A DNA stretch of 64,000 nt from contig CAXHJY010001125.1 of assembly GCA_964016885.1 (NCBI GenBank), forward strand, positions 62,001 to 126,000, written 5' to 3'. Position numbers and translations under genes: made by a program. Below, piece after piece: positions 4,864-62,606 of this stretch (position 1 is the stretch's first letter; every line of letters begins with the position of its first letter). The notes below the pieces were generated by a model. That model did no database searches, was not told where the DNA came from, and was given only the letters and a program-made list of their open reading frames with translations. This DNA comes from Eledone cirrhosa (lineage: Eukaryota).

Positions 4864-4866
<3 letters not shown>

Positions 4867-4982
4867 CGAAGGAAATGTGGTAAGGAACCAGGTGGACCAT
4901 AACGCACCAAAGTACTCAATACTTAGGGGAGTAGAGTGGGTAATAGGAACGTGTAGGACCCCACGTAGGTCTTACTCGTTCC

Positions 4983-9346: not shown

Positions 9347-9381
<35 letters not shown>

Positions 9382-9385
<4 letters not shown>

Positions 9386-9583
9386 AACAAGTAAGACCCC
9401 GACGGCTGAGCTCAAGCCGTTTCGACGGCTAATTCTGTACTATTCTGTACAGAATTAGCCGTCGAAACGGCTTGAGCTCAGCCGTCGGGGTCTTACTTGT
9501 TCCTATTACCCACTCTACTACCCTAAGTATTGAGTACTTTGGTGCGTTATGGTCCACCTGGTTCCTTACCACATTTCCTTCGT

Positions 9584-9585
<2 letters not shown>
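9382..9585 (+). mobile_element. Family C fold-back element in (TA)n
   Basis: Perfect 59-bp inverted arms 9382-9440 and 9447-9505 plus an 80-nt tail; contains GAAACGGCT-tgagctc-AGCCGTC (hammerhead 3' half). Confidence 0.85.
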
Positions 9586-9627
<42 letters not shown>

Positions 9628-9691
9628 TAATAATAAATGTGAAGACGAAAATTCGAAAAGGCCTCCATAAAGATTTATAAATACATATAAA

Positions 9692-9766: not shown

Positions 9767-10018
9767 GGCGGTGGATTGGCAGTATCGGTAGAGGATCGGA
9801 CGCCATGTTTTGCAACATAGAGTTACGGCCCTTTACGGTCTGAGTTCAAATCCCGCCGAGGTTAAGCTTTGCCTTTCATCCTTACAGGGTTGATAAAATA
9901 AAGTACCAGTAAGGATGAAAGGCAAAGTTAACCTCGACGGGATTTGAACTCAGACCGTAAAGGGACGTAATTCTATGCTGCAAAGCATGGTATCCGACCT
10001 TCTACCGACACTGCCAAT
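9767..10018. mobile_element. Two tRNA-SINE copies fused tail-to-tail (inverted pair)
   Basis: Plus copy 9767-9911, minus copy about 9908-10018. Confidence 0.85.
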
Positions 10019-10331: not shown

Positions 10332-10633
10332 AGTGAGAATATTTTCGAAACAGCGAGTGGATTTGAAATTATTAGAAATGTTAGCTATCGCCGTATTTTG
10401 ACTAAAGAAATTAAAGAAATTATTTAGTCTGATAGTGGGGTTAAGAACCCTCGGATAAATGGAAAAAGATGTACGTCAATGGGAGTCGAACCCACATCTT
10501 TGGGTTCGACTCCCATGTACGTCAATACTCATCTTTTTCCATTTCTCCGAGGATTCTTAACCCCACTATCAGACTAAATAATTTCTTTAATTTCTTTAGT
10601 CAAAATACGGCGATAGCTAACATTTCTAATAAT
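10330..10633 (-). mobile_element. Fold-back element with tRNA-like 3' half, flanked by (TA)n
   Basis: Inverted arms about 10368-10494 and 10501-10633; minus strand reads GTGGG-TTCGACT-CCCAT-TGACGTACA-TCTTTTT; 38-nt tail. Confidence 0.7.
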
Positions 10634-10837
10634 ATATATATATATATGTAAAACGAGGAAGTTTCGTTTACATATGAAAAATATTTATTGCGTATCCATC
10701 TGTTACGCGCGTTTCGCAGAGGATTGGCTCAAGGTGACCTATAGGAGTTATAGACCCGATTCCAGTATCGATCTGCTCCTCAAACTGGTGATGCAACAAA
10801 AGAGATATACATAAATATATATATATATATACATCAA

Positions 10838-11037
10838 TAGGAAAATGTTCAGGAGCCCGACGGCAGAGCTCAAGCCGTTTCGACGGCTAGTCGAAACGGC
10901 TCTGCCGTCGGGGTCATACTGGCGTCATACTGCCGTCGGCGTCATACTTTTTTACTATTTCCCACTCTACTACCCTAAGTATTGAGTACTCTGGTGAGTT
11001 ATGGTCCATCTGGTTCCTTACCACAATTCCTTTGTTA
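10838..11037 (+). mobile_element. Family C fold-back element (rearranged)
   Basis: Same arm and tail sequence as 9382-9585 with internal micro-duplications. Confidence 0.8.
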
Positions 11038-11059
11038 TATATATATATATATATATATA

Positions 11060-11254
11060 TAACGAAGGAGATGTGGTAAGGAACCAGGTGGACCATAACG
11101 CACCAAAGTACTCAATACTTAGGGTAGTAGAATGGGTAATAGGAACGAGTAGGACCCCGACGGCTGAGCTCAAGCCGTTTCGACGGGGCTAATTCTGGAG
11201 TCCAGAATTAGCCGTCGAAACGGCTTGAGCTCAGCCGTCGGGGTCCTACTCGTT

Positions 11255-11258
<4 letters not shown>
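11060..11258 (-). mobile_element. Family C fold-back element
   Basis: Tail 11060-11139, then near-perfect hairpin 11140-11258, between TA tracts. Confidence 0.85.
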
Positions 11259-11300
<42 letters not shown>

Positions 11301-61120: not shown

Positions 61121-61259
61121 GAACTTCGATACTCGTTCCACTGAACGCGTCGCCGGATGCCTTCCCTATTGTCCTCGTCTAAATGTCGAAATTGAGGAAA
61201 CCGGTTAGTACATGTTTACGTTTATAATTTGCTTATATATATATATATATATATATAAA

Positions 61260-61428
61260 TAGGAAAAGAGTCAGGACCCCAGCGGCTGAGCTCCGGCCGG
61301 TTCGACAGCTAGGTCGGAGCTCAGCCGTCGGGGTCCTGACTCTTTTCCTATTACCCACTCTACTACCCAGTATCGAGTACTTTGGTGCGTTATGGTCCAC
61401 CTGGTTACTTACTACAAGTCCTTCGTTA
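61260..61428 (+). mobile_element. Family C fold-back element in (TA)n
   Basis: TAGGAAAAGAGTCAGGACCCC...GGGGTCCTGACTCTTTTCCTA plus tail. Confidence 0.82.
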
Positions 61429-61952: not shown

Positions 61953-62009
<57 letters not shown>

Positions 62010-62013
<4 letters not shown>

Positions 62014-62606
62014 AAAAAGTATGACCCCGACGGCAGAGCTCAAGCCGTTTCGACGGTCTATGTCAAACTGGATGAATTTTGTGTCTCGTTTGTCCTCCAT
62101 ATTCCTGAACCAAGGGCGCTGACCCATAGGCTAAGTCTCGCGTTTTGCTTAACTTTTGGTATAACGCGGTCTAGGATCTTTTTACTGATTCTCCCTATGT
62201 CCGACTTCGTTGGGTTTATAAGCCTAATAAACGAGGTCGGATTTGTGGTCCTTCAGTGTGAAGTAGGGAGTCCGTGGGTCTAGGGGTTCAGTGCGGTCGG
62301 CGACCCCGAGGCTAGAGGTAATTTGTTGTCCATCTCGATTTATGTCCTCGATAATTGAATGGTTAGCCTTTTTATAGGTGGAGTTTAGGCTGCTTCTGAT
62401 CAGTGTGTGGCATCTGTCAGGGTTGACGAAGTAGAGGTTTCCAGATTTGTCCGAGTGCCCCATGATGTCGTTGGTGTTTTCATACTCTGTTATTTTGCTA
62501 CGGAGTTTTTGTAGGAATCTGTTGTGTCTGGGTTTGAACTTAATGCTCTTGACCGGGTGGAAAAGGTCGTTCTCGAAGGGTGAGAGCATAGGGTTCAGAG
62601 GGGGAG

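Follow-up and report, generated by a model that had tools for sequence, protein, structure and literature searches.

Paired inverted ends of a Penelope-like element in Eledone cirrhosa and their probable origin by priming at two fixed sites

The DNA at 9382..9585 of the stretch analysed here (64,000 nt of Eledone cirrhosa, hereafter the window) raises the question of how two copies of one retroelement end come to face each other, head to head, around half of a hammerhead ribozyme. An earlier note, made from the letters alone, had proposed that a cDNA snaps back at ribozyme stem II, copies itself and is resolved at a fixed TA. According to our analysis, the hairpin is real, and its sense arm at 9456-9492 reads TAGCCGTC-GAAACGGCT-tgagctc-AGCCGTC-GGGGTC, as given there. 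The inverted arm pair is perfect over 60 bp (9381-9506) and is flanked on both sides by (TA)n. Signed positions are counted from the T of TAGCCGTC, which is position 0 and window position 9456, and the repeat family is referred to as family C.

Read along the sequence, the insertion begins at the left (TA)n target tract (9348..9383), whose final TA also serves as the TA of TTCC|TA. It is followed on the minus strand by the untailed (S) arm at 9384..9441, which runs from pLTR +47 back to -10, the A of an Inr-like TCAGT and a putative start site. The centre, ATTCTGTAC (9442..9450), is a direct repeat of 9432-9440 and has the form of templated filler. Its last four nucleotides, GTAC (9447-9450), are shared with the tailed arm as a palindromic microhomology of 4 nt. 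The tailed (L) arm occupies 9447..9583 on the plus strand and covers pLTR -9 to +127, including a tail of 80 nt (9504..9583, plus strand) bounded by the TA-flanked ends TTCC|TA and CGT|TA; the right (TA)n target tract, again as read in the sequence, is at 9584..9628. Since the untailed arm ends at -10 and is followed by a 9-nt templated repeat whose GTAC opens the tailed arm at -9, the junction bears the signature of end joining.

The element and its hammerhead

Judging from motifs read by eye, the hairpin represents the pLTR end of a Penelope-like element (PLE) of the Hydra clade. Non-inverted copies continue upstream through a UTR of about 1.2 kb into an endonuclease-like frame. One of them (L091, about -3446 to +127, ~3.6 kb) carries 5' of the pLTR a single ORF of 710 aa, in which we read by eye an RT and then a C-terminal GIY-YIG region (VIYQC...AYIG), with the motifs LRWR, SDKTG, YRDDGL, CNCPDRSIC and CNLC..E..N..CKH. 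Aligned by eye with Hydra rows, the frame has DKT instead of DKG and LRWR where RWK is expected; CNCPDRSIC corresponds to the CxCX5C linker, and CxxC and CxH flank the conserved E and N. A Pfam search with this frame gave no match at E<=1. The flanks of the loci identify (TA)n as the target, and the features of an EN+ PLE insertion unit are present, namely a partial-tandem pLTR (partial tandems at L123, L203, L205 and L209), an inverted 5'-truncated copy and a tail at one end.

The features listed are those of the Hydra clade as set out in section 11 of PMC8557442. The Hydra-clade PLEs described there, Hydra-1_Obim included, resemble family C in the C-terminal GIY-YIG region, DKT, the RWK-like motif, the CxCX5C linker, CxxC/CxH and the (TA)n target, as well as in the 3' hammerhead, the partial tandems, the inverted 5'-truncated copy and the tail at one end. 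They are given as under 3 kb, a general rather than diagnostic figure, with tails of 30-40 nt, whereas family C measures ~3.6 kb, has a tail of 80 nt and forms more than 15,000 short hairpins. Compared by eye, Hydra-1_Obim is a different family: it has the hammerhead core ctgaagag and an 8-nt loop II, whereas family C has A8, a loop II of 35-37 nt and a stem III of 5-6 bp. Architecture, clade, target and the U3-A8 core are already published (PMC8557442, PMC4209133), as is self-priming for junctions of this sort (PMC3846280). Membership in Naiad was rejected because the endonuclease is C-terminal. A non-LTR retrozyme, in which every unit of a non-coding tandem array would contain a complete hammerhead, was rejected as well: full hammerheads stand at the 3' end of ORF-bearing elements, and the hairpins carry the 3' half only. 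Near family C copies we also noticed more Penelope-like families (L092:126-1040, L094:8949-9998, L095:2794-4149, L093:1456-3597 and L098:5509-7528), several with YRDD as in family C and others with YVDD (L093, with an RVT_1 match).

The motif in the sense arm is, as predicted from its sequence, the 3' half of a type I hammerhead (9456..9491, plus strand). It comprises the 3' strand of stem II (9456-9463), GAAA (9464-9467), stem III (9467-9472/9480-9485) closed by the palindromic TGAGCTCA, the GUC triplet (9484-9486) with the predicted cut at 9486/9487, i.e. +31, and the 3' strand of stem I (9487-9491), all on the plus strand. It had been observed that the CUGANGA half is absent from every family C copy in the window, which we confirm: none extends 5' of about -10. 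A search for CTGANGA elsewhere found 44 matches genome-wide, and the 30 loci read were mostly junction filler, partner-arm or unrelated sequence, so this candidate was rejected. The 5' half predicted by the earlier note does exist, only not in the form gacccc-CTGANGA-gacggcta; it reads ACCCC-YTGAKAA-GYTCGGCTA and has 2,821 exact copies genome-wide. Longer copies carry this half, a loop II of 35-37 nt and then the 3' motif already described. The lack of any CTGANGA 5' of the stem had been named as a refutation of the proposal; CTGANGA is literally lacking there, yet the predicted ribozyme stands with a 5' half of the A8 type.

In the reconstructed motif, three helices surround the core, the open end is in stem I (ACCCC/GGGGT), and G10.1-C11.1, GAAA and an NUH triplet are all present. 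The core is YUGA(U/G)AA with A at position 8 throughout, either U3-A8 or C3-A8, which departs from the canonical C3UGANG8A; C3-A8 is found in 19 of 29 CTACTCG copies. Among 36 natural copies, retrieved by patterns that themselves fix parts of stem II, 90.4% of helix cells are paired, vs 15-50% when the alignment is slid. One clear compensatory change in stem II, from G-C (16) to A-U (19), is a single event between two subfamilies: an older subfamily (104 matches) keeps the core, has this one stem II pair changed from G-C to A-U, and has a diverged loop II. As hammerheads, two of four full copies fold clearly better than shuffles and two of four no better. An Rfam scan of the window and of one full copy returned no hammerhead family, and its miRNA matches were hairpin or microsatellite noise. 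The U3-A8 PLE hammerheads treated in PMC4209133 share with family C the type I form, the U3-A8 covariation, a bulge at the 5' end of helix II, a palindromic loop III and pairs on opposite strands; family C differs from them in a full helix III, a long loop II with a likely start site and one subfamily with C3-A8. We further observed that this subfamily, with C3 opposite A8 (L032, L098, L128 and others), is large and widely spread, which suggests that cleavage is not needed for amplification.

Arm pairing and the inversion centre

Pattern searches of the 3.0 Gb genome gave 18,635 exact matches to a 37-nt core and found 15,251 hairpin centres that match exactly; the reversed patterns, used as controls, gave 0 in both cases. 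Hand counts here and below cover the first 50-100 listed rows, mostly from contig C1 (cut starts, mini-hairpins and extra-G counts). The claim that the short arm stops at TTCC|TA was borne out, with 127 of 289 copies ending there and 111 of 289 at the tail end. There are accordingly two fixed 3' ends 80 nt apart, TTCC|TA (+47) and CGT|TA (+127), which are likely two RT start sites. Short head-to-head pairs combine a tailed with an untailed arm in 111 of 119 cases (none with two long ends, one with two short ends, seven with a decayed end). Long pairs have one of each end in 35 of 36, the other having two long ends; two such LL pairs were seen (L203 and L241).

The arms are also more alike within than between copies, as anticipated: haplotypes match in 66 of the 70 pairs that could be scored (a common haplotype on both arms) among 100 examined, against a mean of 13.3 and a maximum of 26 after shuffling. 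With few exceptions, one source supplied both arms of an insertion. The discordant pairs, four of the 70 (one of them, L054, by 3 nt) plus two in the window, indicate that two RNAs or gene conversion are sometimes at work.

A cDNA that folds back copies only its own content, so that the tailed arm must reach further 5', and the reach observed for untailed arms argues against self-copying. In 91 short pairs the tailed arm reaches further in 44, the untailed arm in 36, and 11 are ties (p=0.43); where the reach differs by at least 3 nt, the counts are 31 tailed and 27 untailed. In 35 long pairs the tailed arm reaches further in 17 and the untailed arm in 16 (by >50 nt), with a median difference of 561 nt, differences up to ~3 kb and a rho of 0.15. 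Snap-back or self-priming, in which a tail-primed cDNA stalls, folds back as its own template and undergoes resolution at TTCC|TA, would account for the concordance of the arms, the one-tail rule and the matched arm classes, and it could be reconciled with the reach if later deletions at a broken centre erased the asymmetry. It also has published antecedents, palindromic junctions being read as self-priming in the Discussion of PMC3846280 and the tail as EN-mediated resolution in PMC8557442. However, such deletions sit poorly with the preservation of both arms as far as a defined RNA end. Blunt centres and centres with filler are numerous, A/T-rich fillers and the blunt, zero-loop centres at +31 described below could not prime on the C-run, and discordant arms require two templates or conversion. 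TTCC|TA, taken in the earlier note for a fixed point of resolution, is found on long arms too and matches the second RT start site of the Penelope 'tail' as presented in PMC11167929. We therefore regard snap-back as quite unlikely.

The inversion centres lie about 10 nt upstream of the 3' strand of stem II. Among 203 arms, from loci chosen by the core only and hence biased to core-covering arms, 170 have their ends within -20 to +10, most often at -10, and nine extend beyond -20. The commonest end is -10 for tailed and untailed arms alike, the ends scattering from -20 to +8 with no single spike. This position falls in TCAGT or TTAGT, which we take to be an initiator-like (Inr) motif, and the older subfamily retains TTAGT at -12..-8 despite its diverged loop II. 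A Penelope pLTR has an Inr-like TCACT according to PMC3846280. In four tandem loci the pLTR and tail run on to the 5' UTR and ATG, so that the pLTR is likely to provide the mRNA 5' end also. Read from the DNA only, -10 is the likely transcription start.

Position -11 naturally carries T or C. Where an arm ending at -10 is preceded by a purine instead, this extra base is G in 86 rows and A in 14 (the first 100 listed of 6,740). With partner-derived G excluded, the counts were 69 vs 31 of 100, compared with 24 vs 28 at a control position from which 48 substitution rows had been dropped (p=0.008, odds ratio 2.6); G is present on both arms in 45 of 50 listed among 466 double-ended centres. In L1, an additional G is the mark of capped, full-length insertions (PMC4859970, PMC11702581). 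We have moderate confidence in reading the extra G of family C as a cap mark, as many ACTC(A/T)GAGT centres also parse as templated filler.

The cluster at -10 could instead be a boundary where the RT stalls or a protein binds beside stem II, the hairpins perhaps being recopied whole from fold-back transcripts. Its position next to a stable helix, the scatter of the ends over about 25 nt and the recurrence of some centres among loci fit this proposal, which we nonetheless consider very unlikely. A stall acting on each RT would give long arms a short partner in 84% of cases, whereas only one such partner, with its end in -20..+10, was seen among 35 long arms; this speaks for an RNA end shared by the two arms. 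The extra G at -11 and the conserved Inr-like motif also tell against a stall. As to whole-hairpin recopying, centres that recur are found in either orientation with respect to the tail, and the pairs scored had no same-strand A-to-G excess of the kind left by editing, which counts against it.

We consider it probable that a single cut in (TA)n primes two cDNAs, one from each strand, with one TA-flanked site for each and usually on one RNA, that both run off at the same RNA 5' end and that they are then end-joined. The mRNA would start, capped, at the Inr-like A (-10), within hammerhead loop II of the upstream pLTR in a tandem copy. The GIY-YIG/RT protein would cleave each strand of (TA)n, and the 3' ends so created would prime at UUCC|UA and CGU|UA. 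Priming in the 5' pLTR would lead to run-off at the cap, as in the hairpin at 9382..9585 and most others, priming on the 3' product of the ribozyme to run-off at +31, and priming in the 3' pLTR to long, independently truncated arms; the RNA 5' end (cap, cut, or none in reach) would thereby set the arm class. The cDNA 3' ends would be joined blunt, with one extra A or T, by 1-4 nt of microhomology or through templated filler, either by host end-joining or by an end-to-end jump of the RT. In its one-RNA version, the scheme would require strand displacement by the tailed cDNA along kilobases of its partner.

Twin priming is known from L1, where it reportedly goes back to Ostertag and Kazazian (2001). 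In the L1 work of PMC11702581, a second target end likewise primes a second cDNA, the junctions are NHEJ- or MMEJ-like, and a cap-derived extra G is found. The inverted L1 pieces hardly overlap and the position of their second priming site varies, whereas in family C the second site lies at a fixed distance of 80 nt from the first, the two arms do overlap, and almost every insertion has this form. The Poseidon element PAc of Anolis, studied in vitro (PMC11167929), is similar in that both strands are cut and extended, in its predicted dimer, and in two internal RT start sites that bound the tail in the pLTR-ORF junction. According to the same source, start sites in PAc do not differ between the strands and have no homology to the target, whereas family C uses one of each site per insertion and both of its sites are followed by TA.

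Copies that end at the predicted ribozyme cut

A second class of ends coincides with the predicted cut at +31. Mini-hairpins with both arms ending near the cut number 358, and in 31 of the 50 listed both arms end exactly at +31 (10 blunt and 21 with 1-6 nt of filler), with seven within 2 nt and 12 other. Tailed arms starting at +31 total 450, of which 25 of the first 100 listed are G-run artefacts, and those starting at +30 total 52. Among 46 matches at +31 on contig C1 with a non-artefact pattern, three proved to be artefacts nonetheless, both arms lie at the cut in 21, three have a shorter partner, five a partner reaching to -4..-9, one a long partner and one a second tailed arm, 10 adjoin (TA)n or a similar repeat, and two are other. 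Three contig-level runs, from one sample of unrecorded kind and not independent, contain joints at -10 and +31 and a far higher cover of the pLTR, figures that we do not use as copy numbers.

That many copies end at the predicted cut suggests that the ribozyme works in the animal, and it is likely that the A8-type hammerhead cleaves itself in vivo within read-through RNA. For PAc, the account in PMC11167929 has no RNA-seq reads ending at the ribozyme cut, whereas genomic copies of family C do end there. A haplotype rich in C3-A8 is rarer in the cut hairpins (11/50 vs 29/60, p=0.005; vs 13/25, p=0.017), a comparison that was a second attempt and is confounded by subfamily transcription, the first, with a strict regex and 10 hairpins, having given p=0.69.

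At two loci, L235:140-357 and L258:1410-1560 (minus strand), the 3' end of U6 snRNA, with five bases at the T positions, is joined exactly at +31. In L235 the U6 sequence is present on both arms and the centre contains a 26-nt duplication. The U6 match has an E value of 0.0006, below the Rfam gathering score. No U6 was found joined at -30..+2, though such ends are far commoner. Hammerhead cleavage leaves a 5'-OH. Ligation of U6 by RtcB needs a 5'-OH (PMC6789731), and the U6/L1 chimeras of that study resemble the two loci in that the 3' end of U6, with five U, is joined to retroelement RNA; family C differs in that both loci, two only, join at the predicted cut, which would supply the 5'-OH.

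The ends at +31 also bear on whether the two cDNAs are made from one RNA or from two. Twin priming on two separate RNAs in a dimeric RNP, with the match between arms attributed to one active source per cell, would make strand displacement unnecessary and would fit the discordant pairs (those of the haplotype test and the window pairs at 10836 and 4866) and the mixed copies at +31, in which six of 30 untailed partners read through the cut (five of them ambiguous, owing to GG microhomology). We think it unlikely, given that rare classes coincide on the two arms: +31 with +31 in 21 of the 30 partnered copies, U6 on both arms of L235, and a start-site partner for a single long arm.

Returning to priming of both strands on one RNA, we lean slightly towards reading these copies as a fossil record of the Penelope cycle. 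One RNP would prime both strands at two fixed sites on one RNA, run-off would occur at the cap or the cut, the hammerhead would cut in vivo, and the resulting 5'-OH would be joinable by RtcB-type ligation to U6 and possibly to the element's own 3' end. If this is true, head-to-head Penelope ends originate in twin priming instead of self-priming, and the genome lets ribozyme activity be read out for each subfamily, the one rich in C3-A8 being under-represented among cut copies. The family offers thousands of natural events with nucleotide-exact predictions: -10 for the start, +31 for the cut, and +47 and +127 for priming. PMC8557442 states as open both the origin of the inverted ends of PLEs and hammerhead cutting in the cell; the family C evidence speaks against the published self-priming idea, and both questions become directly testable. 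In the mainly open-access literature searched, we found no PLE inversion centres mapped to a start site or a ribozyme cut.

Other copies and repeats in the window

The arms had been said to share copy-specific variants, and they do so at the four sites then cited (9384, 11140, 13076 and 61260); two further pairs in the window, not cited at the time, have differing arms, CTGAACA vs ATACTTT at 10836 and TTACTCG vs CTACACG at 4866. The latter is a mini-hairpin of the same family (4866..4982, minus strand), with its tailed arm from +31, the predicted ribozyme cut, its untailed arm from +33 and a filler of 5 nt. The former is a rearranged hairpin whose arms carry different subfamily variants (10836..11035, plus strand). 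A hairpin with a tailed and an untailed arm and its centre at -6/-10 is at 11062..11259 (minus strand), and one of the older subfamily, with stem II CTAGCTG, at 61258..61426 (plus strand). At 12992..13177 (plus strand), a solo untailed arm adjoining another TA-inserted family (12992-13041) is followed by a decayed mini-hairpin (13076-13177). The CTGATA at ~12987 was rejected as a half of the hammerhead core; it is the end of an unrelated TA-inserted family. At ~12450-12991 the window holds another abundant TA-inserted element, with the end GCCACTGA(TA)n and internal tandem repeats (41 best matches of 2,528 candidates).

At 62009..62596 (minus strand) an untailed arm (+3..+50) is fused, on the same strand, to the RT-region ORF of the element; the ORF piece in the window (62057-62596, 540 nt) is 86% identical to L091. 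Here and in L231, pLTR fragments lie in direct orientation next to the 5' part of the ORF, joins that look as if a run-off cDNA had switched to another template.

Short TA-flanked elements with hammerhead-like words lie at 9638-9680 and 10660-10760 (TGAAGA...CGAAA at 9640, and CGAAACGCG at ~10720 on the minus strand) and are probably ends of other Penelope families. A long low-complexity AT-rich tract at ~14500-22100 dominates the inverted-repeat and Rfam output for the window. Inverted repeats are found in other repeat families as well, namely a SINE-like copy folded at 9867-9927 (within 9867-9997) and a hairpin centred at ~10497 (10410-10636), and both may have formed in the same way as the family C hairpins.
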